A DNA stretch of 63,800 nt, counting the filler, from Collodictyon triciliatum (taxonomy: Eukaryota): assembly GCA_043381765.1 (NCBI GenBank). It is 9 parts of 9 records of this genome, joined end to end, with 100 filler letters (N's around TTAATTAATTAA, not from the genome) between each part and the next. Parts side by side here need not be neighbours in the genome. Positions count along the whole stretch, not along the records: positions 8,316 to 16,564 come from JBHJMP010003529.1; 8 more parts are not named here. The stretch is one strand, 5' to 3'. Every line of letters starts with the position of its first letter. The stretch's first letter is position 1. A program made the position numbers and the translations under genes. Below, one piece after another: positions 4,826-61,379 of this stretch. The notes below the pieces were generated by a model, which saw only the letters and a list, made by a program, of their open reading frames with translations, ran no database searches and was not told the origin of the DNA.

Positions 4826-7515
4826 TTACGATTGATATGTAAGCAACCTGATTCCAGGGAGACTATTTTCTAAGAGCGACACATTGCCGCCATGGTGGAC
4901 TAAAGAATGAAGAAATACATCTAGAAAGGACTGTGGTACAGCGCATTGGTTTTGCAGCCGAAAATAGTACAAATTGAATGAATTATACGTGAACTAAGAG
5001 TGATGTTTAATAAACAAACAAAAAAACATTAATTTCTTGAAAAACTCCAAATATTATTTATAGGCTCATTTCCTGCATCCAAGTTACGATTTCATAGGGA
5101 ATGAAAAACGAGAAGAAAAGAGGACATGATTTTGCCTTTTGTTAGGTTCGGAAGCTTTGTAATTCAAGAAAATGGGAGGGAACATGACTATGGAGTTGAG
5201 TTGGAGTTGTAGAATGAGTATGAGGAACAAAGTGCAAACCCTTCAATTTAAAATACAAGGTGGACTATGACAGGCCGGTGCCCATCCCAAGAATTTTTAC
5301 AGCCTCTGAAATTCCAAGCATTGAGTAAGACCGCCCTTTGGTGACTTTCTCAACTGTGGGGATTTTAGAGTTTGTTTTGTTATATGCATCCGCTATCCAT
5401 CGATGTCGAGAGGCATCTACTAGACTCATCCGGTTGGATGGCTCGGTGCGAAGAAGAGAGGTGACGAAATTTCTCGAGTCTGATTTTAGAAGTAAATTTC
5501 ATGGTGTGAGAAAACAACTGATTCACTTGGATTCATAAAATGGAACTATAATTTTTTTTTAAAATTGATAGCAATAAAGATAAAAAAAAATGATGATGAA
5601 AAGTGATGACCTGCTGATAATCTTGTAGGAAAGAGAAAGTTGGGGTCTATTTTTTCCCTGTACATGGCCTCACAATTTCTCTTCCACATAGCCGATATAG
5701 GGCTCACTTTGCATATTGTCAAGCCACATACCACTCCAAATCCCCAAATGTCAGATGAAGCCTCGGTGATGTTTTCAAACAATGTCTATTTTGATATATA
5801 TATATATCATTAAAACTTATGCAAAAGATACGATTCCAAAGTTAAATAATCATATAAATAAAACCATCAAGCTTTTGATTCTGTGAAAAAAAAAAATGTG
5901 GCCTATGACCGCATGGTCATTGAATACAAACATATGTCAGTGACTTGTAATTTGTCTTGCCTCGGGTGCGATGTATCCCGGCGAACCGTAAACGTGTGTA
6001 TCAGGCAAGGCTTGCCACCTTCTGCAGACAGAAATACCAAAATCGCATAGCTTTACCACACCATCTTTTCGTATTAATATATTTTCAGGCTTTATATCCT
6101 TATGAATAATGAATTTTTTGTGGCAATATATTAGGGCAGACAAAATCTGAGATATGATTTTCCTTGATTTTTTCTCTGGAAGTGCGTCTCTAGCGTTAAT
6201 ATAGCTGAGTAAGTCCTCTCCTTGGACCAGGTCGGTCACGATGTATGTAAAAGAGCGCAAAGGATCGTAAATTACCTAATATTGCGTAATCTGTGTGACT
6301 TTGTAAAAGGTAACCCATAATCAAATGGAATAGGAGACTGACAAACATAAGCAATTAAATATTTGGCTTTTACAACATATATTCCAAATCATGGTATATG
6401 GCCAAAAAGCAGTAGAAGTATGATGTATGCGAAAGCGTCACTACCTCGATAAGTTGCAATATGTGTGGATGGCACAATCGTGAGAGAATCATGGTTTCCC
6501 TTTTGCAATTATCCTGGTCTTTCTTACTCAGATGCTCGATATTCCAGTCAATAACTTTGATAGCGACCTAAATAGAGTGGTGTAAAATGAATAACGCATC
6601 GAAGGGTAACTGTCCCATGGTATTGTCTTTGATTCATTATATCAGCATACTAGTTGTTGGTTTGTCTGGTTGATGCATTTCCACACTGACGATGTGGTTC
6701 CATAACCAACTATCATTAAAAAATGATACGCACATTGCCCTAAATAACCAAAAAAAAAAAAAAGATGAAGAGTAAAGGAGGAAAGGAGACATTTTTAGAA
6801 ATCGATGAATAATTTGGAATATCAACCACAGATGTATATCTTTTTTGGACAAATATGACCTTCCATCATAGCATTACATAAGTAATTCACCTTCGATATG
6901 TCCAGAGGGTGGATTAACATGGACACATACCTCTGTATGGAATATATATTAATCCATGCACTATTCATTACACTTGTAAATACACATTTACTAATCCTAT
7001 ATCTTCTATGAAATAGTCCATCGATCCGCCATATCTTATTAAAAAGGCTTCATTCACATATATTTCAATCATATTACATGGCTACCAAAAACTGAAAGAA
7101 AGAAAAAGCAAATAATACTGCCACCACCGACCGAGAACCAACATGTTTTTGTTATTCAAGAAGAGGAAGAAAAAACTGGGTGGAATATTTGATAGGGTGA
7201 TTTAGCCTTGCCTTGGTTAATGATGAGCTCTGATTTGAGTCTCTGGCTTGCTTCAAATGTTGTAACTGTGATAGAAGCAGACGTTTGCGGAGATGTTTCC
7301 GTGTGCTCAGAAGAAGGTACATACGTGAAGGTTTGACCTTGTGATGTTGTTTCTCTCGGTAAGTTCATAATGGATCCATGTAGAAACTCGAGTCCTTGGG
7401 CTTGGGCTTGGGCTTGGGCTTTTGTCTGTGAAGCAGAGCTACGGTTTATTTCAAAGGAGGACCCGGGTTGACTTCCACGCGGTGAAACTTGGAGTGGACT
7501 ATAGCACGACTGCAT
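4826..7515 (-). CDS. Multi-exon Ser/Thr protein kinase (CAMK-like, HKD catalytic loop)
   Basis: Exons give YGTTSSVWKC, VAIK, RETMIL, HPHILQL, IIHKDIKPEN, KLCDFG, GSPGYIAPE, SDIWGFGV. The start codon is uncertain. Confidence 0.85.
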
Positions 7516-8215: not shown

Positions 8216-8315
8216 NNNNNNNNNNNNNNNNNNNNNNNNNNNNNNNNNNNNNNNNNNNNTTAATTAATTAANNNNNNNNNNNNNNNNNNNNNNNNNNNNN
8301 NNNNNNNNNNNNNNN
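8216..8315. other. Artificial contig linker N44-TTAATTAATTAA-N44; identical copies at 16565-16664, 24844-24943, 33150-33249, 41455-41554, 49758-49857, 58055-58154 and 60982-61081
   Basis: Identical 100-nt structure with stop codons in all six frames. Confidence 0.98.
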
Positions 8316-8422
8316 CAAAAACCAAAAACCAAAAACCAAAAACCAAAAACCAAAAACCAAAAACCAAAAACCAAAAACCAAAAACCAAAAACCAAAAACC
8401 AAAAACCAAAAACCAAAAACCA
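8316..8422. repeat. (CAAAAAC)n heptamer repeat at contig start
   Basis: Directly visible. Confidence 0.95.
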
Positions 8423-9025
8423 AACACTCTCGGATCGCATCTATAACGAATGCTTTTTTTTTTAATAGCTGGGCTATATCGTGCTACCACACTAAAGTAT
8501 ATCGGCTTTACGATGAGTGTAATACCACAGAAATCACTCAGCCAAGCCACCACATGGTTAAGGAGTACACCAGACCATAGTTCTAGAACACAATTTAGTT
8601 TGGAAATAATAATAAAAAGAACAAAATGGAAAGGATTCACAAATGAAGATACAGTTGAATGTAGGATTATTAAAATTCATACTTCAATCTTCGATGACAA
8701 TAATTACGGACATGTTCATATTTTTGACCACTTTAAGCTAATATGAACGTTTTTAGGAATCGAACGGGAAAAATAAATGCATTTGTAGCCAAGAGTGGAA
8801 TTTTTACCTTTACTATTATATCATCTAAAAATTAAAAAAATAATAAATTAAAATACTATAAGAAAAGCTTCTTCTGGTCCTTACCGGAATAGTTATGAAA
8901 ACAGATATGATATGAAATATGCGAGTCAAACAAAGAAAATCACGCACTAAAAGAGTGTATCCAGAGATGCATGTGTTTTTCCCCCCATTCTGTTGAAAGC
9001 CATATGACACCCTACCAACAGAAAT

Positions 9026-12000
9026 ATGTCCGAGCCATCACCAAGCAGGCAATCCGACGCCACCAACCAGCAAGAATCTGAAGACCAGAAACATACAGAA
9101 CCAATACGAGAACCCGCACCAGTCGATGAGAAAATCCGCAGAGGCCTAATTCCAGCCGCAGTTTATTCTGATGGCGAAGGGAGATGGACTGTTGTCTATG
9201 ATACCAGAGTCTTGAGAATCTTCATGTCCTCCACTTTTCGAGACATGCAAAGAGAAAGAGACGAGTTCTTTGCAAATGCCGAAAAAAAGTAACATCGTTT
9301 TGGTCAATTACAAAATTCCATGAGTACATGTTTGTATGTTGGGTTTATCTATAAATCAAAAAATTGTTGCAGACTCAAAGACTTTGCCAAGAAGAAGGGT
9401 GTCATCCTTGTTTTCATCGACTTGCGCTGGGGACTGACCAGTGAAATATCTGAGAATGGACTGGTGGGAATTATTCTAGTTCTTTCTTGATTTTTCTATT
9501 TTTAATTTTTTTTATCAATTTTAAATCATCTCCATTATAAAGGTCGTTATCAGCTGCCTTGAATCTATCGAGGAATGTCCTTACTTTCTATGCACACTCG
9601 GCTCACGTTACGGTTGGTCACCAAACCATGAAAACCCATCTGAATGGCATCCAGACACGGACTTGAAGTTTCCATACCTCAAGGAGATTAGGGGTCTCAG
9701 TGTGACTGATTACGAGGTTCATTTATACTGTATATCCGCTTGTAGTCAAATATTTGTATATATCACTATCAGTCTCTAACATTATTCATGTCAAATAGAT
9801 TGTTCACGGCGCTCTGAGAGAAAATCCTGTTGCCCGACGTGCACTCTTCTATTCCCGAGACGAAGAACATGCAGTCAACCACGTTGCTGAAACCGATGCA
9901 GAGCGTGCATTATATCGCCCAGTCGACGAAAAGGATGTAAGCAGAAAGGACTTTGGACCATTTCTCTTTATAATACTACGGTAATTTGAGAACTTATATA
10001 AGCCTTAATTTCAGAGAGAAAACCAGGATGGATTGAAAGAAAAGATTGGAAATGTCTTTGAAGTCAAGCCATACAAGACACCCCAGCAGCTTGTCTCGAT
10101 GATGGTTGATGATTTGATGGAAGCCATCGACAAGGATTTTCCCGACCAAGAGGTTTGTTTTCAAAGAAATTAAGTATTATCAATATTAGTTAACTTTAAG
10201 TATTTTTAGTTCTCCAATTATAATATAAAAAACTTGTAGCATAAGCATCCTGAGGACAAGGCGCATGAGCAGTTTATGCGACATCGACTGATTGGATTGG
10301 AAGGAAGAGACACCATCTTGGCCATTTTGAAGGAGAAAGCGATACTGCAGCTCGATACTGAATGTTCTGATATTACCGTTGTTGGCGCAGAGTCTGGTAT
10401 TGGCAAATCGACGATTATGAGCGGGCTAGTTCGTGACCTGAAGGCGGGCAAAAAGTCGAATCTAGTAGTCATCTACCACTTTGTCGGATGCTCAAACCTG
10501 AGTAACTATGTGGAAAAGTAAGAATAATCAATAATATAGTAAAGTAAAATATGTTAATTGGTCATATAAGTATTGATCACCATTTTTGCAATAGTTTGGT
10601 GGAGCGCGTAGCTCGCATTCTTGTTGAAAATGAAGCAATCGAACTGAACCTTGACTCCGAAGAAGGTTCATATGTCAAATGATAATTAATTTCTATTTCT
10701 TTTTTATTTCTTCATTCAATAATTTACATAAGCACTCATTTTGTTTTTATGCCTTGTTGTAGGGAAGGAAGCTTTGAAGAAGGGACTAGACCACATACTC
10801 AAGCTTGCATCAAGAAATGAGTCGATTTCAATAATCATGTTTTAATTAAAATAATATAATATCTGACAAGCCTATCAATACAGAAAAAAGCAGGTTGTCT
10901 TGGTCATCGATGCATTCAACCAGTTGGTCAATTCAGAGCATAACAAACACGTCCACCGCCTTGAATGGCTTCCCAAAAAGACACCAAAGAACATCTCCAT
11001 CGTCGCATCAACCATCGACACCCACGAATCATGCAATGTTTGTCAATTTTTTCGAGGATATAATATGCTTGAATTAATCCAATCGCTTTTGAATAGGTTG
11101 CCAGGTCAGCAGGGCTAGATATCATTCCTGTGTCGAAGCTTGATGATGTCGGAATCAGACAAGCAGCCACCTCGTTCTTCAAGCGCTACAACAAGACCTT
11201 AAACGAGAAACAGATGGAGATGATACTGAGTGACCGTGACGATACTGGTGATTATAGCTAATAATTCGAATATTTTTATATTTTATTTTTAGTACACATA
11301 TTTTTTAATTGTGAGTACAAGAGCAGGTCATCCACTTTACCTGCGCATTGTGCTGGATGAGCTGCGTGTATTTGGAGTGTACGAAAAAGTAGACTCCGAG
11401 CTTCGTGAAATGCTGGAGACGATAGGAGTTGTCAATTTGTTCGACCTTGTGATGACTCGCTGGGGAAAGAAATACGGTTTTGTAATACATATGAAAGTGT
11501 TATTTTAACGTGATTATATTGACCTGTGTGCAATTTTAGGAGAGGATATTGTTCGTCTCTCCATCAGTGTTCTTTATGTGTCGCGCATTGGTCTTGATGA
11601 AAACGAGCTGGATAAATACATGGAGCATCGACTTAACCAAATTCATATGCAAATCAACCATGCAACCTGGTATATCGATACCTGACATATGATTCATATA
11701 TATCACTTTTGATAAATTGTATTTTTTATTTTAGGAAATCGTTTCTTTTTGTCTTGCTGGATTCGCTCTTTGTGAGGAACGGGAGGTGATACGGGTATTC
11801 ATATGTTTCTTAATGGTCGTAATTGCTCATCACAATATCTTTATTAGATACGCGTTCTCTCACCAGCTGCTGACACAATCCATCAAAGAGCGATACTTTA
11901 AGGATGAAGCATACACAACAAGTGAAGCACGTGAATATGGATTGTGGCTGCTGGGTGAATACGGCTCTGACACTGAAGAGAAGAGTGTTGTTGCCGAAAT

Positions 12001-13566
12001 ATGCCACAATCTGAGGATTTCGAGCGAATACGATACACTAGTGGACTTTATGAAGAGTGAAAAGGTTAGATTGTGGATTTTTTTTTTATAACTGTGGCAT
12101 GTGTTGTAATATAGTCTTTAGGTTGTTGTGAGCATTCTGGATGACAACTATCGCTTCGAGTTTTATGAATGCTGGAGAGCGCTGAATAAGAACGGTTATG
12201 ACCACAAAGTTGTGTATCGTGAGTTGACCAAGGTGATAAAACTCAATTACATGTATCAATATTGAATTTAATTTAATGGGTATGCACAACAGCAACTGAA
12301 TTCTGCTGGCTACGCGCTGATTGGCTATTTTCGACAAATTCAAGAAAATACCTTTTTGATTCCGATTCTTGAGCACCGCATTTCTGTTGAGACGGATGAG
12401 GGTTTGGTCATTTGATTTGAGTTTTTGTGTGTTACTAATTTTGGTTCATCCTTATTAGGTTCGAATTGTAGAAATATGAATTTCCTGGGGTTGGTTTACA
12501 AGAATATCGGAAAGTATGATTTTGGATCTTAATTCATTTATGTTTATCTCTTCTTTAACTTATTATTTAATAGAAATGACAAAGCTCTGGAATACTACCA
12601 CAAATCATTGGAAATCCGACTGAAAGTGTTTGGAGAAGTCCACCCTGATGTTGCCAATTCGTATAATAACATTGGAATGGTTTACGATAACCTTGGAAAG
12701 TATGTTTTATTTAGTTATGTATTATATTTATCATTTCATTAACTTATTATTGAATAGAAATGACAAAGCTCTGGAGTGCTATCACAAATCATTGGAAATC
12801 CAACTGAAGGTGTTTGGAGAAGTCCACCCTGATGTTGCCGCTTCGTATAATAATATTGGAAACGTTTACGATAACCTCGGAAAGTATGTTTTATTTGATT
12901 ATGTTCATGTGTATCCTTTCATTAACTTATTATTTAATAGAAATCATAAAGCTCTGGAATACTATCACAAATCATTGGAAATTCAACTGAAAATGTTTGG
13001 AGAAATCCACCCTGATGTTTCCACTTCATATAATAATATTGGAAACGTTCATCGTCAACTTGGAAAGTATCTTTTATTCGATTATGTATTTATGTTTATC
13101 CTTTCATTAACTTATCATTTAATAGACATGACAAAGCTCTGGAGTACTATCACAAATCACTGGATATTCGACTGAAAGTGTTTGGAGAGGTCCACCCCAA
13201 TGTTGCCAATACATATATGGGAATTGGGATGGTTTACAATAACCTTGGAAAGTATCTTTTATTTGACTACGTATATATGTTTATCCTTTCATTAACTTAT
13301 CATTTAATAGATATGACAAAGCTCTGGAGTACTATCACAAATCACTTGAGATTAAGCTGAAAGTATATGGAGAAATCCACCCTGGTGTTGGGGATACATA
13401 CTACAATATTGGTAGCCTACTTATGAACCAGGAGAAATACCAAGAGGCTTTGGACATGTACCAAAAAGCCAAGAATGTGTATGAGCATGTGTATGGCGCA
13501 GACCATTCCGAGACGAAAGATGCAGAAAAGCAAATGATGAATGCACAGAAGATGCTGACCCAATAA
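9026..13566 (+). CDS. STAND-type protein, DUF4062 + NACHT-like NTPase + TPR repeats (NPHP3/TTC41/TEP1-like architecture), about 20 exons
   Basis: DUF4062 motifs LRIFMSSTFRDMQRERD, FIDLRWG, CLESIEECPYFLCTLGSRYGW; Walker A GAESGIGKS; Walker B VLVIDAFNQL; GHPLYLRIVLDELRVFG; 42-aa TPRs (KALEYYHKSLEI..HPDVA.SYNNIG); stop TAA at 13564-13566. Confidence 0.92.
12514..13436 (+). repeat. Tandem intron+exon cassette array with ~184-nt period, one TPR per exon
   Basis: Introns 12514-12573, 12700-12757, 12884-12940, 13067-13125, 13252-13310; 126-nt exons 12574-12699, 12758-12883, 12941-13066, 13126-13251; a fifth unit opens the last exon at 13311. Confidence 0.95.
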
Positions 13567-14234
13567 GTGGCTCGTCTGTTACCCACCCATCTAAACAACC
13601 CTTTCATCCACCCATACACCACCCTTTCCACAAAAACAAGTACAAGTGAGTACTATCCTGATGACCCCCAAACTGAATGAGTGCAGATGATTGCTAGCTT
13701 GTTCGCAGAGGCTGGATGAAAAGAATAAAAAAAAAACTAACCAACGTAACCTTTCCAGCAGTTGCCGATAAACGTGACACATCTCCTGCTTGTTTGATAA
13801 TCGACCTTGAGTATGTGTCACAGGCGAAAAGAATGATTATGTGTTGGTTATCATTGTGTTACTGAGGTGTTTGCTTTCATTTGATTCATTCACATTTTTT
13901 TTTTCGCTTGGTTAAGTGTCGCAATGTCAGCTTCATGGACACAATCTTTTCTTTTTCTTGCGCCCATGATGATGGTGGGCTGTAGCGATACATGCACTCG
14001 CTTTGTGTGCCTTTATTCTGTCTTATATTATATTCATCGACTTACTTGAAGGCTCTTAATATCCTTGACCGACTACGCTGTTGTCTGTTGCATCTGCAGT
14101 TGTTTGATTATTCGGCGAAGTGTTTGGTTGTTTTGTGTTTTGGTTTATTGGCTCCACAGTGCGATTAGTCTCGGTTTTTTCTTTGGCATTCACCTGCTCA
14201 CTACTTTTCTTTTCGTTTACTTTCTCTTTACTTT

Positions 14235-14900
14235 TTGTTTTCTTCTGTTTTCTTCTGTTTTCCTCTGTTTTCCTCTGTTTTCCTCTGTTTTCCTCTCTTT
14301 TCCTCTCTTTTCCTCTCTTTTCCTCTCTTTTCCTCTCTTTTCCTCTCTTTTCCTCTCTTTTCTTCTCTTTTTCTTTTCTTTTTCTTTTCTTTTTCTTTTC
14401 TTTTTCTTTTCTTTTTCATTTCTTCTGTTTTCTTTTCTTCTGTTTTCTTTTCTTCTGTTTTCTTTTCTTCTGTTTTCTTTTGTTTTCTTCTGTTTTCCTC
14501 TGTTTTCCTCTCTTTTCCTCTCTTTTCCTCTCTTTTCTTCTCTTTTCTTCTGTTTTCTTCTGTTTTCTTCTGTTTTCTTTTGTTTTCTTCTGTTTTCTTC
14601 TGTTTTCTTCTGTTTTCTTCTGTTTTCTTCTGTTTTCTTCTGTTTTCTTCTGTTTTCTTCTGTTTTCCTCTGTTTTCTTCTGTTTTCCTCTGTTTTCCTC
14701 TCTTTTCCTCTCTTTTCCTCTGTTTTCTTCTGTTTTCTTTTGTTTTCTTCTGTTTTCTTCTCTTTTCTTCTGTTTTCTTCTGTTTTCCTCTGTTTTCTTC
14801 TCTTTTCTTCTGTTTTCTTCTCTTTTCTTCTGTTTTCTTCTGTTTTCTTCTGTTTTCTTCTGTTTTCTTCTCTTCTCTTCTCTTTTCTTCTCTTTTTTTT
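14235..14900. repeat. Decamer minisatellite family (TTTTCTTCTG / TTTTCCTCTC and variants)
   Basis: Visible 10-bp period; produces spurious F/S- and K/R-rich ORFs. Confidence 0.95.
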
Positions 14901-16448
14901 TTCTTCTCTTTTCTTTAATATTTTCATCTTTCATTATAATCCTTCCAATTTGCGCAACATAGTGAAGGACTTGGCTTGGATCGCTAGCCATCGATTGCAT
15001 GGACTCTACTAGGTTGCTATTTGGCCGGTGAAGCCAACTGTAGTCAATAATTGTTTTATGTCCACCGGCCTGTAGGCTGGGTCTTGTGCTTGCATGAGAG
15101 AGGCAAGGTCTATTCTCATTCCCGGGTTTTTATTTTGTATAGATTATTCAATACTAGGTGTCTACATATGCTTCGCTTCACGTGCATGTATCCCTGGAAG
15201 AATAAGCATGCTGAACTATTATCACTTTGATGTATATATCCCTACTAAATCTCAGTTTGTAGTCTATGACCAGCTTTGTATCCTTCACAAGGGATAGGCT
15301 ATCAGTGATGCATTATATCCAACAGCGTGCATTTAGTATATGTTTCATATATAGGTAAACCGCTTCATTTATTTTAAAATTATTTACATTCCTGTGTATG
15401 TCTTTCTCTGTCTTTTATAAGATTACTTTCTTTTCTCTGTATTTCATTCTTGCTGATTTTATTTTATTTTATTTTCGACTTTTATTCTTTATTTTCCACT
15501 CTTTTTTTCTTTATTACGAACCACAATATATGCACTCACAAAAGCAAAGTTTTCTTTCCTCATTGTCTTTGATATCCCACAAAGTTGTTTCCTCATAAGC
15601 CTTTTCCAAAAAAACTAAAGTACTATGCTTAAGTCTCTCAGAATAATAAATCATTTGAAATATTTTATTGGGGTATGAATAATGTTTTGGTAATTCATAG
15701 ATAACAGATTGGTTTTGTTGCACACGCCCTTGATGCTTAAAGATTTTTAGTTGTGTATATGTCTTGCTGCTTCATTTGAACGGTACATATCAAGGTTGTC
15801 CTCTATCCCTCTGCTACTTTTATTTATTTTGTCTTATTTTTTGCTTATAATAGTAACAGATTATGTTTATATTCAATCAGAGCAAGCATCGCCTTTTTTC
15901 ATGATAATCTTGTAGTAATATGAGCTGTAAAGTGGAACGTATCCCCAGAGAAAGAGTCCTACACTATTATTCGTGTAAACTGTATACGTTAACGATTGCA
16001 CATAAAGCATAGTTTGTTTATCATAATCAAATTTCTGCTTTCTTTAATTTCGTGTGCTTATGTCTTCATTTTATGCATATTTTATTGCACTATCGTGTTT
16101 TCCCTTTTTTACGTACAACAATATGTATTGTGGACTCAGCCTTGTTTGTTCCATTACGCTGTCTTCGACCTCATTACGCTTTCTTGAATTGCTTCTGGTC
16201 AGTCGGTCTCGTTTCCTGATTGTTACGTTGACCTGATGACCTTCTTTTATCGCCTTCTATCATGCTTTGGCTCCAATTGTTTCTCATTCAATCTTTTTAC
16301 CCTTGTTAAAACAGGGGCTTCTATAATCAAAAAATTAAACAAAATCAATGTATGGACCTTTTCTATAACAAAAAACTGTGCATGGTTTCCTTTCATGAAT
16401 GACAATCACTACACCTTTCATGTGATTCTTTTTTTAAAAAAAAAATGC

Positions 16449-16480
16449 AGATAGAGAGATAGAGAGATAGAGAGATAGAG

Positions 16481-16564
<84 letters not shown>
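16449..16564. repeat. (AGAGAT)n shifting to (AGAT)n
   Basis: Directly visible. Confidence 0.95.
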
Positions 16565-16664
16565 NNNNNNNNNNNNNNNNNNNNNNNNNNNNNNNNNNNN
16601 NNNNNNNNTTAATTAATTAANNNNNNNNNNNNNNNNNNNNNNNNNNNNNNNNNNNNNNNNNNNN

Positions 16665-21597: not shown

Positions 21598-23118
21598 ATG
21601 ACACGCACGTCGCCCACCAGCGTTTTACACAAGCGCCAATCGGAGGCTGTAAAGCCAAGCGTGGTAGCCGACAAGGACACACTGGCCGAGCCTGTGACAG
21701 ATGAGGACTTCAGCGAGGACTACAAAAACTTCAAAGGGATGCGTCGCCGTGAACTGACTGATCTGTTTGACAAGCAGTTTCTCGAGTTCGGCTACTGGCT
21801 GCGCAAGGACATTGGAAAGCGCTACACGCGAGCAGACTTTGTGGCCATCAACCGCCGCGAAGCAACCAACGCGTATCTGCTGTGCCTGGCCCACGTGGGA
21901 CTCTACACGCTACTCCACATGTACGCAGACGAGTACCGCTTTGTGTGGCGCTACTTTGTGTTCGCTTTTGGTATCTTCGCGTTCCAAAACATGCGCATGG
22001 TGCACTCGCGCATGCACTGGGCCGGCGACATGACAGGCTGCAGGGCCTTTGACACGTTCATTGACTCGACCATCATGGTGCTGACCGGCTGCTCTAAGGA
22101 AGCGTTCCGCCGACGCCATGTGGATGAGCACATGACTGACATCAGTAATGTTGCGCGGCTCTTTGGCGAGGCCTGGCTGCCCTTCTTGGACCTTCCTGCC
22201 CTGTGGTACTTGCGCCCATTCGACCTTGTGCGCCTTCTGCTCGACGAAAAACGGTGCAAGCAGTTTGAGTTTGACCGCCGTCAGCTGCTTGTGGAGGTTA
22301 TTGGGCTCTACTCGTTCCTCTTCAGCGTGGGGCTGGAACTCTTCATCGGGTCCAACTTTCTGCTGTGCTATCACCTCTGCCCGATGCTGATTGTCGCCAC
22401 GTCTCGCCTGATGACCGGCATGTTTGCACACTCGGGTGTGGACCGCCGCAACAGCTTCAACGCATGCGCAATCTTTGACTGGCGCGAGGCCAAGGGGCTC
22501 TTCAAGGTCACCATCTGGCTCATTGACATCATCACCGACTGCGGCCTCAGCAACCACAGCATCCACCATGGCCACGCGCAATGCCCAGTCTCTGTTGTGA
22601 ACCCCGAAATCCGCCGCATCAACAAGCACATCCTCGAAAACTACCGCGATGTCCGCTACAACAGAGTCCTCAGCCATGAAGTCCACGCCAACCTCCTCGA
22701 GCGCCTGCCTGAGCCTCGCTTCTATGACTATATTATCCAGCTCTTGGTCTCATGCTTTGCCCTCTGCGCGACATGCCTCACCATCCTCGGAATCGACGTG
22801 TCCCCAACCATCTTTGAGCTGCCCATGGTGGACTACCGTGTCCTCTTTTACTCCACAAAGGCCGAGCGCTTTGCAAACTTTGTTGCGTTCCTTGACTCCA
22901 TTCATTTCCTCGAGCGTGCGCGCGCAATCAAGAATCCACATCACTACATGGTCTACTTCAAGACGCAGCTTGAGATGATGAAGACATACCTCCGCGCTCA
23001 CCCCACAGCAACACAGCCCGTGCCTTATCGCCGCTATGCTCCCGAGTGGGTCTATGAGGCCAACGAGATAAGCCTTTCCCCGCGCTCCAACCACGGCTCC
23101 TTTGAGTCCTACCAGTAA
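21598..23118 (+). CDS. Intronless membrane fatty-acid desaturase/hydroxylase superfamily protein, 506 aa
   Basis: Long GC-rich ORF with His boxes HSRMH, RRRHVDEH and HSIHH, plus FAH and several hydrophobic segments; no HPGG cytochrome b5 motif. Confidence 0.8.
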   Translation: MTRTSPTSVLHKRQSEAVKPSVVADKDTLAEPVTDEDFSEDYKNFKGMRRRELTDLFDKQFLEFGYWLRKDIGKRYTRADFVAINRREATNAYLLCLAHVGLYTLLHMYADEYRFVWRYFVFAFGIFAFQNMRMVHSRMHWAGDMTGCRAFDTFIDSTIMVLTGCSKEAFRRRHVDEHMTDISNVARLFGEAWLPFLDLPALWYLRPFDLVRLLLDEKRCKQFEFDRRQLLVEVIGLYSFLFSVGLELFIGSNFLLCYHLCPMLIVATSRLMTGMFAHSGVDRRNSFNACAIFDWREAKGLFKVTIWLIDIITDCGLSNHSIHHGHAQCPVSVVNPEIRRINKHILENYRDVRYNRVLSHEVHANLLERLPEPRFYDYIIQLLVSCFALCATCLTILGIDVSPTIFELPMVDYRVLFYSTKAERFANFVAFLDSIHFLERARAIKNPHHYMVYFKTQLEMMKTYLRAHPTATQPVPYRRYAPEWVYEANEISLSPRSNHGSFESYQ

Positions 23119-24699: not shown

Positions 24700-25023
24700 T
24701 ATAATAATAATACTACTAATAATACTACTAATAATACTACTAATAATACTACTAATAATAATACTACTAATAATAATACTACTAATAATAATACTACTAA
24801 TAATAATACTACTAATAATAATACTACTAATAATAATACTACTNNNNNNNNNNNNNNNNNNNNNNNNNNNNNNNNNNNNNNNNNNNNTTAATTAATTAAN
24901 NNNNNNNNNNNNNNNNNNNNNNNNNNNNNNNNNNNNNNNNNNNTCTCTCTTTTTTTTCTCTCTTTTTTTTCTCTCTTTTTTTTCTCTCTTTTTTTTCTCT
25001 CTTTTTTTTCTCTCTTTTTTTTT

Positions 25024-29010: not shown

Positions 29011-31491
<2,481 letters not shown>

Positions 31492-33149: not shown

Positions 33150-33547
33150 NNNNNNNNNNNNNNNNNNNNNNNNNNNNNNNNNNNNNNNNNNNNTTAATTA
33201 ATTAANNNNNNNNNNNNNNNNNNNNNNNNNNNNNNNNNNNNNNNNNNNNCTTGAACTCCCTTATTGTCCCATAGGTCATCACAAGAAAGAGGGAGATGCT
33301 TTTTGTCAGAGGAGACGGAGTCATTCTTATTTCCCCTCCTATCCGCACGTAGTGGTTGTTGCAAGGAGCCATTATGATTCAGCAAATAATAAATGAGAGA
33401 AATTCAACTGATCTAGATATTCGTGAGTTTGTGGGAGAGTGCCACAGAATACAGAGCGATTATGTCTGAGTTCATGGCTTGGCGTGTTTCTGTCTGCACC
33501 AATCCTCTCTAACAAAATCGATGGTGTTAATAGGAAAATGTTCATTA

Positions 33548-41192: not shown

Positions 41193-41689
41193 AAGAATAC
41201 CTCAGTGCAAACCCCCTTCTCTTGAAACGAATTAAGGGGGAAATTGTTCAACAGAATAGTTTGGGGTTTAGATTGTTCGTTCTCATGACAAAAAAAAAAG
41301 CAAAAGGTTAAAATTCCTCTGTCTTTCTGTTTGTTTGCTTTGTTTTGTTTTTTTGTTTTTTTTGTTTTGTTTTTTTGTTTTTTTGTTTTTTGTTTTTTGT
41401 TTTTTGTTTTTTGTTTTTTGTTTTTTGTTTTTTGTTTTTTGTTTTTTGTTTTTTNNNNNNNNNNNNNNNNNNNNNNNNNNNNNNNNNNNNNNNNNNNNTT
41501 AATTAATTAANNNNNNNNNNNNNNNNNNNNNNNNNNNNNNNNNNNNNNNNNNNNAAAAAGAAAAAGAAAAAGAAAAAGAAAAAGAAAAAGAAAAAGAAAA
41601 AGAAAAAGAAAAAGAAAAAGAAAAAGAAAAAGAAAAAGAAAAAGAAAAAGAAATCGAAAAAAGAATAAGAAAAAGAAAAAAGAATAAGA

Positions 41690-47600: not shown

Positions 47601-49145
47601 TAGAGTGGCTCAACAATCAATAGTGAAAATTACATCTTGAGCGCTGATGCCTGCTGGCTCTTGCGGAACTTTCTTAAGCGTTTTCTGAGTTAATTGTAAT
47701 GATTAATAATTTAAATAATGTTAATTTAGCAATATTTCGAGCGAGAGGTGCAAAGGAAAATGTGTCACGAGTCTTATTATTCAATCATACGGGTCTCAAC
47801 TCCTGTGCATCTGATTTCGTTGTTGAAGCGGCTAAATTCGGTTCGATGTTCATGATTAGAAAAACAATTCAGATGCAATTGAATTATTGACTACTGTATG
47901 GTGATATAGAGTTGACGCACCTGTAAAAAGCCGCCCTGGAGCTGTTGTTCCTCTATACTCCTCTTCCACGTCTCTCACTTGAAGTGTCACACCACGGACT
48001 ACACGATTCAGAAAATAAGAAGAAAAGAGAAAAGAAGAAAATACAAGAGAGGATAAGAGGAAAAGAAGAAAAGAAAGAAAAGAAAGAAAAGAAAGAAAAG
48101 AAAGAAAAGAAAGAAAAGAAAGAAAAGAAAGAAAAGAAAGAAAAGAAAGAAAAGAAAGAAAAGAANNNNNNNNNNNNNNNNNNNNNNNNNNNNNNNNNNN
48201 NNNNNNNNNNNNNNNNNNNNNNNNNNNNNNNNNNNNNNNNNNNNNNNNNNNNNNNNNNNNNNNNNNNNNNNNNNNNNNNNNNNNNNNNNNNNNNNNNNNN
48301 NNNNNNNNNNNNNNNNNNNNNNNNNNNNNNNNNNNNNNNNNNNNNNNNNNNNNNNNNNNNNNNNNNNNNNNNNNNNNNNNNNNNNNNNGAAAAGAAGGAA
48401 AAGAAGGAAAAGAAGGAAAAGAAGGAAAAGAAGGAAAAGAAGGAAAAGAAGGAAAAGAAGGAAAAGAAGGAAAAGAAGGAAAAGAAGGAAGAGAAGGAAA
48501 AGAAGAGAAGATACTATAAAATACACAACATTATTACTAAACCAATGAAGCATAAAGAGTGAGACACATGCCTGGCTTATCCACGCCACTTGCACTGACA
48601 GACTCTCTGACACGCACAGAGCTCCTTAATGCAGGCGAGCTCGCCACATCGAACACATCCACTGCGACCGGAGGCGAAGCAGACGGGCCCCATTTCGGCC
48701 GTGCCCTTTCCTCCGCTGTGTGCATGGGCGCATCCGAGCGCTCATGAGAGTCCACGTCCATCGATGCTGGCCGTCCAGGAAACGCTGCGTGAGTCGATCC
48801 CGAGGCACTGTGGGACTGCTGCGGAGGCGCACTGGATCCCAGTAACTCGCGCACATACTTCGCCTGGGCCTTCGAAGAGGTATTTGCCAGAAAGAGGCGG
48901 TCGCTGCCTTCTTCGGTATCCTTGGCCGAGCTGAGTGGACGTTGGCCGAGCGGCAGAAGAAACGACGGGAGAATGCCCGTGTGCAGTGGCAGCGGTAATG
49001 GCGAAGGCGATGTGTTCTTTGGGCGAGAAGGCGGTGTTGACGTGTCGATCGGGCTGTGGGCCGCAACAGGGGACGAAGAGACTGGGTTTGGCTTTGTGGG
49101 GCTGCTTGGAATGGCGCGGCCGGAGACGCTTGGGAGTTGGCTCAT
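41690..49145 (-). CDS. Large multi-exon protein with an axonemal dynein light chain domain (PF10211-like, AXDND1-type), coiled coil and long disordered region; both ends uncertain
   Basis: PYSRKEAIIVQKWLEKEL...IFEACYHELIRQVSVACQERGDLLELVW is characteristic of this domain; long open exons at 43045-44157, 44740-45453 and 48537-49154. Confidence 0.72.
48060..48505. repeat. Intronic 9-mer purine repeat (AAAGAAAAG to AAAAGAAGG) spanning a true scaffold gap (48166-48389)
   Basis: Directly visible; this gap has no linker motif. Confidence 0.9.
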
Positions 49146-49757: not shown

Positions 49758-49857
49758 NNNNNNNNNNNNNNNNNNNNNNNNNNNNNNNNNNNNNNNNNNN
49801 NTTAATTAATTAANNNNNNNNNNNNNNNNNNNNNNNNNNNNNNNNNNNNNNNNNNNN

Positions 49858-57796: not shown

Positions 57797-58335
57797 TCCC
57801 GATACCTACAAATCCTTGCCAACGTGCTTATATTGGTATTTGCTATACATATGTTGTATGTGATTGAAATTATTTCGATTTTTTTTTTATTCTTCCTTTC
57901 AACTTTTGTGCAGGACTGAATTGAAATTATTTCGATGATTCTAGTCCATATATGATTAAATATTAAAATTCCACATTAATAAATCTATAATCAAATAGAG
58001 TATAGATTGTCCCTTTTGGACAAGCCACAACAAAAAACCAAAAAAACCAAAAAANNNNNNNNNNNNNNNNNNNNNNNNNNNNNNNNNNNNNNNNNNNNTT
58101 AATTAATTAANNNNNNNNNNNNNNNNNNNNNNNNNNNNNNNNNNNNNNNNNNNNTTTTTTTTTTTTTTTTTTTTTTTTTTAGCATGTATGGGGTTTTAAC
58201 CAAAATAGACAATTCAATTATCGGATATGAAATTATTGATGTATCAATAATAAAGTTGAGAGAATTTTACAACTCCACAGGCCATTTTTCATTCCAACTC
58301 AACCTTTTGATCAGTCATTAATACTTTATTTTAGG

Positions 58336-60981: not shown

Positions 60982-61379
60982 NNNNNNNNNNNNNNNNNNN
61001 NNNNNNNNNNNNNNNNNNNNNNNNNTTAATTAATTAANNNNNNNNNNNNNNNNNNNNNNNNNNNNNNNNNNNNNNNNNNNNAAGAAAAAAGATAAAGAAA
61101 AAAGATAAAGAAAAAAGATAAAGAAAAAAGATAAAGAAAAAAGATAAAGAAAAAAGATAAAGAAAAAAGATAAAGAAAAAAGATAAAGAAAAAAGAAAAA
61201 AGGAATATAAAATATGAATTTAAATAAAGACATCCACACGACACATTCACTTGATTTCATGCAGTGTAGTGGATACAATAGCGTTATAAAATATTAGCAA
61301 TGACACACACAAGTCCATGTATTAGTTATCTATTTCTTGTATCCAACAAAACGTGCCGATTTATAGTTTCGTAACCAAG

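Follow-up and report, generated by a model that had tools for sequence, protein, structure and literature searches.

An NLR-like STAND gene of Collodictyon triciliatum with a TPR arm carried by tandem, homologous exon-intron cassettes

Analysis of a 63,800-nt stretch of DNA from Collodictyon triciliatum (hereafter the window; assembly GCA_043381765.1, nine parts joined with 100-N filler) revealed what is probably an expressed NLR-like STAND gene, with an old layout of one intron per TPR and with inner cassettes that were recently duplicated or homogenised. The gene lies within part JBHJMP010003529.1 (window positions 8,316-16,564), and its model was built by hand and corrected with the joints and loose ends of RNA contigs. 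All 21 introns are GT..AG and 57-97 nt long. The start codon probably lies at 9026 and the stop codon, TAA, is at 13564-13566. The model aligned end to end with P0062, a protein of the freshwater flagellate Diphylleia rotans (45% identity, 909 bits), and with three further homologues. An Rfam scan of the window gave no matches. The gene and its exons are:

9026-13566, + strand: whole NLR-like gene, 22 exons, product of ~1032 aa
9026-9288, 9373-9463, 9543-9716, 9799-9936, 10015-10152, 10240-10517, 10595-10665, 10763-10820, + strand: exons 1-8
10884-11037, 11097-11247, 11327-11476, 11540-11669, 11735-11785, 11848-12064, 12122-12232, 12293-12401, 12459-12513, + strand: exons 9-17
12574-12699, 12758-12883, 12941-13066, 13126-13251, 13311-13566, + strand: exons 18-22

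The gene is predicted to encode a NACHT-type STAND NTPase in an NLR-like tripartite layout (effector, NTPase and repeat sensor). From the N to the C terminus, Pfam matches together with full-length alignments gave a DUF4062/NIR domain (TIR-like NADase), a NACHT-type NTPase and kinesin-light-chain-type TPRs, where the Pfam matches were obtained on exon pieces. This bore out the DUF4062-NACHT-TPR, NLR-like assignment of the initial annotation. Upstream of the repeats the domains are located as follows:

9200-9936, + strand: DUF4062/NIR (TIR-like NADase) domain, exons 1-4, with the Pfam DUF4062 match and a conserved Glu
10240-11669, + strand: NACHT/NPHP3_N-type STAND P-loop NTPase and the following helical region, exons 6-12

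The DUF4062 model (PF13271) scored 27.2 bits on exon 3 (cutoff 24.7) and 18.3 bits on exon 1. Exon 3 ends with an S-V-T-D-Y-E-I motif holding a family-invariant Glu, and this Glu is present in all 10 family rows whose alignment extends over the S-[VIL]-T-x-x-E-I motif, the Collodictyon protein included. By analogy, it is a putative equivalent of the published catalytic Glu, given as E108 in PsAvs2 and E1008 in TEP1 in excerpts of two 2026 preprints (bioRxiv 10.64898/2026.09.04.749371 and 10.64898/2026.05.01.722283). In the NTPase region, the Walker A motif is G-A-E-S-G-I-G-K-S-T (exon 6) and a Walker B-like stretch reads V-V-L-V-I-D-A (exon 9). The best NTPase models in Pfam were NPHP3_N, NACHT and nSTAND1, and NB-ARC gave no match in the exons of the gene or in the D. 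rotans homologues. Individual exon fragments remained below the Pfam cutoffs (NPHP3_N 20.6 bits, cutoff 24.8; NACHT 19.2 and 14.6 bits, cutoff 26.7), and the collinear homologues P0059, P0062 and P0044 exceeded the NACHT or NPHP3_N cutoffs (P0059 NACHT 34.7, P0062 NPHP3_N 30.2). In addition, P0015, an intronless DUF4062-STAND-TPR protein, gave a full-length collinear alignment to the gene product (E 1e-82). PADLOC, applied to P0062, P0015 and two exons, returned a generic TPR model only.

The 3' part of the gene consists of the repeat-encoding units:

12293-12513, + strand: 'unit 0', a degenerate first TPR period, split by a phase-1 intron at 12402-12458
12514-13310, + strand: cassette array, introns I1-I5 alternating with 126-nt exons E1-E4, genomic period 183-186 bp
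12514-12573 (60 nt), 12700-12757 (58 nt), 12884-12940 (57 nt), + strand: introns I1, I2 and I3
13067-13125 (59 nt), 13252-13310 (59 nt), + strand: introns I4 and I5
12574-12699, 12758-12883, 12941-13066, 13126-13251, + strand: exons E1, E2, E3 and E4, each 126 nt
12548-12573, + strand: most conserved intron segment, given here for I1 and present in all five introns, with a 3' part like YTTTMATTAACTTATYATTKAATAG
13311-13566, + strand: last exon, with the fifth unit (13311-13436), a pair of capping helices at the C terminus, and the stop codon

The initial annotation had described four exons of 126 nt and a fifth unit opening the last exon, and all its coordinates and numbers were reproduced. 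It had further described five homologous phase-2 introns of 57-60 nt that split the same Lys codon, which was confirmed by the identities between intron pairs and by the boundary pattern. Unit 0 ends with the first GGAAA/GTAT donor, and all five boundaries read GGAAA/GTAT...AATAG/A, with the Lys codon split AA/A in phase 2. A search pattern for such a boundary (donor, 38-60 nt, acceptor and exon start) had five matches in the window and none in each of 100 dinucleotide-preserving shuffles; viral contigs likewise gave no matches to the pattern. Tandem Repeats Finder reported a sole array, at 12536-13390 (period 185, 4.6 copies, 85% matches, score 1183).

The cassette introns are homologous beyond what composition and the splice signals common to introns give. 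Identity was 0.76-0.93 (mean 0.83) in the 10 pairs of cassette introns, as compared to 0.46-0.68 (mean 0.56) in 80 pairs of a cassette intron with another intron of the gene and 0.38-0.62 (mean 0.53) in 120 pairs of the other introns among themselves, the last taken from an earlier gene model. I4 and I5 differ at 4 of 59 sites without gaps, exactly as had been annotated. Within the conserved intron segment, which takes in the acceptor, the five-unit alignment has a TTAAC element ~15 nt upstream of the AG, a putative branch site. Equal lengths, common phase and intron homology bear out the view of these units as frame-neutral, homologous exon-intron cassettes.

On a single exon the TPR models TPR_12 and TPR_10 gave 1.8e-9 and 3e-9 in Pfam, and the last exon matched TPR_10/TPR_12 (E ~1e-15) as well as chains of kinesin light chain 1/2 (KLC1/KLC2; E 2e-15 to 3e-14). 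In the exon at 12574-12699 Pfam matched positions 19-42 of TPR_10, the second half of one TPR, and after these positions 1-15 of TPR_8, the first half of the next; in this register the intron therefore falls at the turn that links helix A to helix B. Each cassette exon thus holds one 42-aa period and not one structural TPR. The earlier wording, 'one 42-aa TPR each', thus holds for the period, but an exon is made up of two TPR halves.

That the number or order of units was mis-assembled is very improbable. We saw no independent DNA contig that crosses 12454-13395, where the X1 depth is 0-1.3. However, the units can be told apart one by one, with differences at 9-30% of sites in the exons and 7-24% in the introns, the reading frame is intact through all of them, no N runs occur inside 9000-13700, and RNA contigs of run X2 match the window at ≥99% likeness (45 of 280 placed).

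A layout of this kind is indicated in D. rotans as well. For this comparison we used transcriptome proteins (EukProt EP00002; e.g. P0062, P0063 and P0059), with intron positions inferred from isoforms. The D. rotans proteins carry DUF4062, NACHT/NPHP3_N and TPR_12 and have the same architecture as the Collodictyon protein (1057-1081 aa as compared to ~1032 aa; 40-45% identity end to end), and their intron positions are apparently the same at the TPR turns and in unit 0. In seven of eight isoform pairs the shorter form stops or diverges exactly at a Collodictyon intron position, six times at a TPR turn and once at the unit-0 intron (P0060 vs. P0059); in principle, such breaks might mark the ends of assembled sequences instead of retained introns. 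Breaks at successive TPR turns were found in isoforms of five Trinity genes (DN3614, DN4896, DN6178, DN7291 and DN3814). In one pair a 'K-stop' stands where the long form has 'N', as expected of read-through of a phase-2 AA/GT.. intron. That truncated D. rotans isoforms have this TPR-turn codon in common as their break point suggests that one intron per repeat was already the layout in the ancestor of the family.

Splicing of the Collodictyon gene was backed by RNA contigs from freshwater runs, which contain contigs both near-identical and related to the window (word shares at most 0.15). Eleven upstream introns were matched exactly by GT..AG joints in contigs of runs X2, X4 and X7, for introns 4 and 11 of the gene and cassette intron I1 the joints matched with few substituted letters, and for introns 6, 14 and 15 the loose ends of contigs matched. 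I1 is removed in an X2 contig (joint 12513 to 12576, two substituted letters), and the unit-0 intron has a joint from 12400 to 12458 (+1). This evidence applies to stretches with contig cover, and thus not to, for example, 11669-12453 in X7 or positions beyond 13239 in X4. As part of our preferred explanation, the cassette introns are probably taken out by ordinary splicing.

A different reading is that diversity is made at the RNA level, where regulated exon skipping or intron retention would give different numbers or orders of TPR units from one gene. The array would allow for this, as the five donors and five acceptors are near-identical, any skip of 126-nt exons in phase 2-2 stays in frame, and I3, with its 57 nt, is open in frame. 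There are also X2 RNA contigs in which the end of unit 1 is followed directly by the start of unit 3, 4 or 5, with one joint that 'goes back 126', and the D. rotans isoforms ending at TPR-turn introns would represent arms cut after differing numbers of units. However, in the unit-1-to-unit-5 contig with visible identity 13 of 100 and 25 of 240 letters differ from the window, and since the contigs joining unit 1 to later units are 87-90% identical where this is visible, they come from relatives or paralogues and not from skipped forms. Moreover, Logan contigs are short and able to collapse repeats, unspliced pre-mRNA also yields contigs with retained introns, and none of the eight D. rotans isoform pairs differs by an in-frame multiple of 42 aa. 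We regard RNA-level combinatorics as quite unlikely, and the 'combinatorial receptor system' proposed in the initial annotation was not borne out, as neither skipping nor swapping of exons of this gene was seen. We give similarly little credence to the wider proposal that the TPR-turn introns generate receptor diversity, be it by unit skipping, by intron-retention stops or by frequent mitotic exchange of 185-bp cassettes within or between paralogues. If true, a unicellular predator would possess a fast-diversifying, NADase-armed NLR repertoire of the Ectocarpus or fungal kind.

The explanation that we prefer, recent duplication or homogenisation of the inner cassettes, builds on comparison of the units with each other and with P0062. 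U1-U4 are mutually 62-90% identical at the amino acid level (U1/U2 90%, the remaining pairs 62-83%), as compared to 43-55% with each inner unit of P0062. The edges of the array are best matched by their positional counterparts in that protein (U0 33%, residues 718-759; U5 55%, P0062:970; cap 40%, P0062:1012). The likeness is distributed as a mosaic: I4/I5 and the first ~35 exon nt are almost identical, yet E4/E5 overall are 71% identical, and E1/E2 are 91% identical vs. 78% for I1/I2. Beyond its first ~35 nt the last exon is diverged, and this remainder has its orthologous counterpart in the last unit of P0062 together with the cap. The mutual likeness of U1-U4, together with positional orthology at the edges, points to unequal crossing-over or gene conversion that happened recently and took the introns along; 'recent' is only relative here because dS among U1-U4 is 0.22-0.41. 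Unlike the inner units of the Collodictyon gene, the TPR units of D. rotans are mutually diverged, with in-register identity of at most 0.60 in nine family proteins tested vs. 0.90 here. Trinity assemblies tend to lose near-identical repeats, and the missing highly similar units in D. rotans are for this reason weak evidence.

We propose that in this protein family the TPR arm is built from one 42-aa period per 126-nt exon, with a phase-2 intron in the codon of the helix A/helix B turn (G-K/), and that this layout is probably old, being common to the D. rotans paralogues. Recent duplication or homogenisation on a 185-bp period, by unequal crossing-over and/or gene conversion, probably affected the four inner units together with their introns and the opening third of the fifth unit, while the edges stayed orthologous to P0062. 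Because every unit is 126 nt in the same phase, and therefore frame-neutral, the sensor arm would be able to change quickly; gain, loss or exchange of units would alter its length and surface quickly over evolutionary time. In the protein, the TPR arm may bind a ligand, the NTPase may oligomerise and the N-terminal NADase-like domain may act as the effector. These effector and sensor roles are modelled on excerpts of the two preprints on DUF4062/NIR; a role in immunity is suggested by analogy only.

Possibly, the gene reflects ordinary repeat-protein evolution, in which the protein would be a scaffold of the NPHP3/TTC41/NWD type, ciliary or housekeeping and without meaning as a receptor, and its tandem units a neutral by-product of replication slippage or unequal exchange, but we find this rather doubtful. 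Weak matches to the NPHP3_N and TPR_NPHP3 models agree with it, as does the total arm length, nearly equal to that of P0062 with one unit fewer (four inner units vs. five). In all 10 unit pairs dN/dS was 0.15-0.76 (five 41-codon units, a weak test); with 10 of 10 pairs below 1, the whole-exon comparison is therefore without a signal of diversifying selection. Furthermore, mammalian relatives are without a proven immune role in the excerpts of the same preprints. On the other hand, TPR_NPHP3 reached 33 bits vs. a cutoff of 100, and a search with exon 6 (NTPase) among 1.84 billion representatives found 14 proteins at E ≤1e-3, 11 from D. rotans and three short environmental fragments, with no animal NPHP3/TTC41. 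In D. rotans alone the family falls into at least 11 clusters at 50% identity, and a 13-row tree nested the Collodictyon protein within these paralogues (support 87/87 and 83/84). Such nesting agrees better with a family that expanded within a lineage than with a scaffold conserved as a single copy, and the claim that the gene is not a single conserved NPHP3/TTC41 orthologue stood. A literature search for Diphylleia rotans with NACHT found no paper on its DUF4062-NACHT-TPR family.

Both the domain architecture and the shuffling of one TPR per 126-nt exon are already published. Ectocarpus NB-ARC-TPR candidate receptors have repetitive 126-nt TPR exons, and according to the available text this layout lends itself to the duplication and shuffling of exons (Zambounis et al. 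2012, PMC3341825). The Collodictyon gene is alike in having a STAND NTPase with a TPR arm on 42-aa/126-nt frame-neutral exons and in belonging to a multigene family. It differs in lineage and in its NTPase, which is NB-ARC in Ectocarpus and NACHT/NPHP3_N with an N-terminal DUF4062/NIR domain in Collodictyon, as well as in its cassette introns, which at 57-60 nt are themselves homologous. Inactivated TPR exons in introns are described for Ectocarpus; in Collodictyon, a search for inactivated cassettes and for orphan ones, which the initial annotation had raised, gave no match outside the gene in the 63.8-kb window (blastn at word size 7 with the array, tblastn with the protein). The NTPase type unlike the brown-algal NB-ARC makes an independent origin plausible. 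To this extent the earlier claim of an 'independent' version could be kept, but the DUF4062-NACHT-repeat architecture itself had already been described as widespread in eukaryotes (bioRxiv 10.64898/2026.09.04.749371 and 10.64898/2026.05.01.722283). According to excerpts of these two preprints, purified human NWD1, NWD2 and NPHP3 are without NADase activity, and TEP1 alone is active. The Collodictyon protein shares with TTC41, NWD1/2, TEP1 and NPHP3 the N-terminal DUF4062/NIR domain, the NACHT-type NTPase, the repeat arm and the Glu of S-x-T-x-x-E, but judged by the exon 6 search none of these is its close orthologue, and exon-intron cassettes are not mentioned for these proteins in the excerpts.

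Fungal NLRs have highly internally conserved WD, ANK and TPR repeats, with a criterion of >85% identity over ≥100 aa, as given in parts of Dyrka et al. (2014, PMC4986451); alleles that differ in repeat number, and surface sites under positive selection, further characterise this fungal type. As in the fungal proteins, the 42-aa TPRs of the Collodictyon gene are closer to each other than to the units of homologues, a pattern read in fungi as concerted evolution by repeat exchange. Their likeness approaches the fungal level without reaching it, with 90% over 42 aa for U1/U2 and 62-83% for the other pairs of U1-U4. In the Collodictyon gene the intron is part of the repeating unit, whereas one intron per repeat is not mentioned for fungal NLRs in those parts of the paper.

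Going by the excerpts of the two preprints, it is only very recently that NLR-like receptors with a DUF4062/NIR NADase head came to be seen as widespread among eukaryotes, and the locus shows one such family in a lineage of freshwater protists that branches deeply and has Diphylleia as its closest relative. It would be a second case of the brown-algal type of cassette architecture, on another NTPase scaffold and probably of independent origin. This gives a concrete locus at which to ask whether the turnover of repeats in NLR-like genes of protists follows biotic conflict. If only neutral repeat evolution is at work, the gene is still a clean example of concerted evolution that includes introns.

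To look for further relatives we scanned metagenomes with the last exon, which gave 230 stretches confirmed by tblastn. The 80 that were examined were all generic TPR genes, 36-55% identical, and none of these 80 was a close DNA relative of the gene; blastn of the gene against them gave only matches of 71-89% over 44-107 nt, inside TPR units. Among the same 80, a DUF4062-NTPase match was found in one alone (L072; 28% over 600 aa, no introns). Word searches for longer protein matches found none for exon 6 and 17 for the last exon, the latter at ≤56% identity. A corresponding search for near matches with a two-unit protein found 23, the best being P0022, an environmental cassette ORF whose exon is 73% identical over one unit and whose read-through flanks are compatible with the same intron ends.

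The gene under study ends in its array of repeated exon-intron cassettes, and the features of the model are listed here by position in the window.

9026-13566, + strand: gene under study, from the ATG at 9026 to the TAA at 13564-13566; 22 exons, introns of 57-97 nt, array at the 3' end
12514-13436, + strand: four cassette exons (E1-E4) of 126 nt each, alternating with introns I1-I5; a fifth 126-nt unit (E5) starts the last exon
12514-13436 region, + strand: cassette introns I1-I5, in order 60, 58, 57, 59 and 59 nt long
10518-10594, + strand: intron 6, supported by RNA joints
10821-10883, + strand: intron 8, supported by RNA joints
11248-11326, + strand: intron 10, supported by RNA joints

The layout proposed in the initial annotation, four 126-nt exons plus a fifth unit and five introns of 57-60 nt, was reproduced with its coordinates, as was the near-identity of I4 and I5, which differ at 4 of 59 positions. 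Every boundary reads GGAAA|GTAT...AATAG|A, and all five introns are thus phase 2 and split an AA|A lysine codon, as had been claimed. Tandem Repeats Finder reported a single array (12536-13390, period 185, 4.6 copies, 85% matches, score 1183), and a pattern running from the donor over 38-60 nt to the acceptor and the exon start had 5 matches in the window as compared to 0 in each of 100 shuffles. To control for composition and splice signals, the cassette introns were compared with the gene's 16 other introns (gene model of that stage). The proposed homology of the cassette introns was borne out, as they are 0.76-0.93 identical to each other (10 pairs) but only 0.46-0.68 to the other introns (80 pairs), which among themselves reach 0.38-0.62 (120 pairs). 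The description of one TPR per exon needs modification: each exon does hold one 42-aa period, but by Pfam placement this consists of the back half of one TPR followed by the front half of its successor, so that the period is offset from the structural TPR and the cassette intron falls in the helix A/helix B turn. If retained, I3 (12884-12940, 57 nt) is open in frame and would insert 19 residues without truncation; read-through of I1, I2, I4 or I5 meets a stop codon within 6-36 codons. The cassette array is real, well-formed and evolutionarily informative.

In Pfam searches with exon pieces, exon 3 matched DUF4062 (27.2 bits, cutoff 24.7), TPR_12 and TPR_10 were matched strongly, and NPHP3_N and NACHT weakly, as fragments would give. 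The last exon matched kinesin light chain TPR structures (E about 1e-15), and P0015, an intronless metagenome protein of 981 aa with a DUF4062-P-loop-TPR order, aligned with the entire spliced model (E 1e-82). Two 2026 preprints describe DUF4062, renamed NIR, as a TIR-like NADase that acts as effector in bacterial anti-phage systems, needs a conserved glutamate for activity, and is found N-terminally in numerous NLR-like proteins of eukaryotes, among them TTC41, NWD1/2, TEP1 and NPHP3; they also already describe the domain architecture found here as widespread (10.64898/2026.09.04.749371; 10.64898/2026.05.01.722283). The Glu of the motif S-[VIL]-T-x-x-E-I is invariant in all 10 aligned family rows that cover it, the gene under study included, and is the putative catalytic residue.

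A full HMMER scan of the 92-aa Walker-A exon against 1.84 billion representative proteins (E <= 1e-3) found only 14 relatives, of which 11 are Trinity-predicted Diphylleia rotans proteins (EukProt) and the other three are short unnamed fragments, one of them 88% identical. The D. rotans members share the gene's architecture and are 32-51% identical over almost the full length; the closest, P0062, reaches 45% end to end. In a maximum likelihood tree of 13 rows that leaves out the TPRs and takes P0015 as the distant row, the protein nests within the D. rotans paralogues as sister to P0062/P0064/P0043 (support 87/87; next node out 83/84). Nodes deeper than these are unsafe owing to several long branches. 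The gene could instead have been a single conserved NPHP3/TTC41 orthologue, but the D. rotans-dominated relatives and the nesting among paralogues show it to be a member of an old, expanded family. The source is probably a freshwater protist resembling the diphyllateans. Two D. rotans members, P0042 (2619 aa) and P0052 (2314 aa), are more than double length, with the DUF4062-NTPase-TPR module beginning at residue ~372 and ~212, respectively, and long C-terminal extensions after it.

The age of the intron-per-repeat layout was approached through eight D. rotans isoform pairs. In seven, the shorter isoform ends or diverges exactly at an intron position of the gene under study: at the G-(K/R/M)| TPR turn in six (P0057, P0058, P0048, P0047, P0054 and, within two residues, P0053) and at the unit-0 intron position (unit 0 being the degenerate first TPR period) in P0060. 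The eighth, P0061, diverges where our gene has no intron. Three short forms stop directly after the split codon, and one has Lys-stop where the long form has Asn, as predicted for read-through of an AA|GTAA-type phase-2 intron. The breaks therefore look like retained introns, which would make the layout older than the split of these paralogues from the gene under study, an indirect argument from transcript-derived proteins. An environmental 64-aa ORF, P0022, consists of a single unit 73% identical to the gene's unit; the read-through peptides on both sides of it look like translations of the ends of the gene's introns.

The inner units themselves are younger copies. U1-U4 are 62-90% identical in protein. 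P0062 has five inner units, one more than the four found here, and each of U1-U4 is about equidistant (43-55%) from all of them, while units 0 and 5 and the C-terminal cap best match their positional counterparts in P0062 (33, 55 and 40%). The DNA of the array is mosaic: I4/I5 and the first ~35 exon bases are nearly identical with E4/E5 at 71% overall, and E1/E2 are 91% identical with their introns at 78%. This pattern points to unequal crossing-over and/or gene conversion, which would copy inner units on the 185-bp genomic period while the array edges stay anchored. In-register unit identity was at most 0.60 in 9/9 D. rotans proteins tested, compared to 0.90 here, but transcriptome assemblers lose near-identical repeats. 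With dS of 0.22-0.41 among U1-U4, the copying events are not very recent, and no positive selection was seen in whole-exon comparison (dN/dS 0.15-0.76 in all 10 unit pairs). The amino-acid differences lie mostly in the exon's helix-A half; in TPR solenoids generally, helix A lines the concave face.

Splicing was assessed with contigs placed at >=88% likeness from four runs of freshwater samples or coded organisms: X1, which is DNA, and X2, X4 and X7, which are RNA or probably RNA. RNA-run GT..AG joints gave exact matches for 11 of the 16 upstream introns, and matches with one to five substituted letters for introns 4, 11 and I1; introns 6, 14 and 15 were matched by contig loose ends, and intron 6 at 10518-10594 gave the better alignment to 4/4 homologues. 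For I2-I5 no exact joint of this gene was found among the RNA contig matches listed, and the visible spliced junctions come only from related units (X4 loose ends at 12575 and 12888). A relative ~95% identical is present as DNA, as shown by an X1 contig of 681 nt with 37 differences that reads unspliced across three introns.

Among the 280 X2 contigs placed (45 at >=99% likeness, 27 fitting two places), some connect unit 1 with unit 3, unit 4 or unit 5, and at one joint the sequence steps back 126 nt. These could be taken for skipped forms of our gene, but in the one contig with visible identity 13/100 and 25/240 letters differ from the window, and that explanation was rejected; they come instead from further members of the family or from a different species, and repeats may have collapsed in them. 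Their presence shows expression of related transcripts in which the units have other neighbours. The D. rotans isoform pairs compared contained no difference of a multiple of 42 aa, and a sequence search for the paralogues or orphan cassettes anticipated in the initial annotation returned none within the window. The metagenome scan for relatives gave only generic TPR genes (36-55% identity). The reading of the array as a combinatorial receptor is put forward as a hypothesis. Two metagenome loci are examples of the 42-aa period without introns: L072 (10328-11932), whose DUF4062-NTPase homologue (28% over 600 aa) lacks introns, and L015 (6256-7110), with intronless TPR units in an exact 126-nt period.

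The closest precedent for the exon layout is the Ectocarpus NB-ARC-TPR family, where the TPR arm lies on 126-nt / 42-aa exons at 13 of 24 loci (PMC3341825). In contrast, the NTPase here is NACHT/NPHP3_N with a DUF4062/NIR head, and the introns are short, homologous and without inactivated exons. For the homogenisation, the closest analogue is found in fungal NLRs whose 42-aa TPRs are highly conserved; their published threshold (>85% over >=100 aa; PMC4986451) is approached but not reached by our units. No paper on Diphylleia NLR-like genes was found (literature on Diphylleia rotans with NACHT), and judged by title or abstract start none of the DUF4062 papers among the matches listed has exon cassettes as its topic.

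Elsewhere in the window, three genes have short introns, which fits a compact, intron-rich eukaryotic genome.

5937-6567, - strand: Ser/Thr protein kinase gene (Pkinase 3.4e-28)
29241-31131, + strand: thiolase gene (Thiolase_N 7e-15)
1402-1905, + strand: glycosyltransferase family 8 fragment

An intronless 506-aa ORF (21598-23115, + strand) lies in a 54% G+C island (~21.5-24 kb) of a window otherwise at 30-40% G+C. It matches no Pfam family at E <= 1e-3; a protein atlas score of 0.93 suggests a fatty-acid-desaturase-like protein, and its nearest atlas clusters are mostly eukaryotic, with a cyanobacterial FA_desaturase third. A long microsatellite-like array (14236-14915; TGTTTTCTTC, ~68 copies, 91% matches) follows the gene's stop codon at a distance of about 670 bp, and similar purine/pyrimidine-skewed low-complexity tracts recur across the window. 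Paired 44-N runs with 12 bases between occur about every 8.3 kb (8216-8315, 16565-16664, 24844-24943, 33150-33249, 41455-41554, 49758-49857, 58055-58154 and 60982-61081), and a single 223-N run at 48166-48388; microsatellites often adjoin these runs, which look masked or withheld rather than biological.
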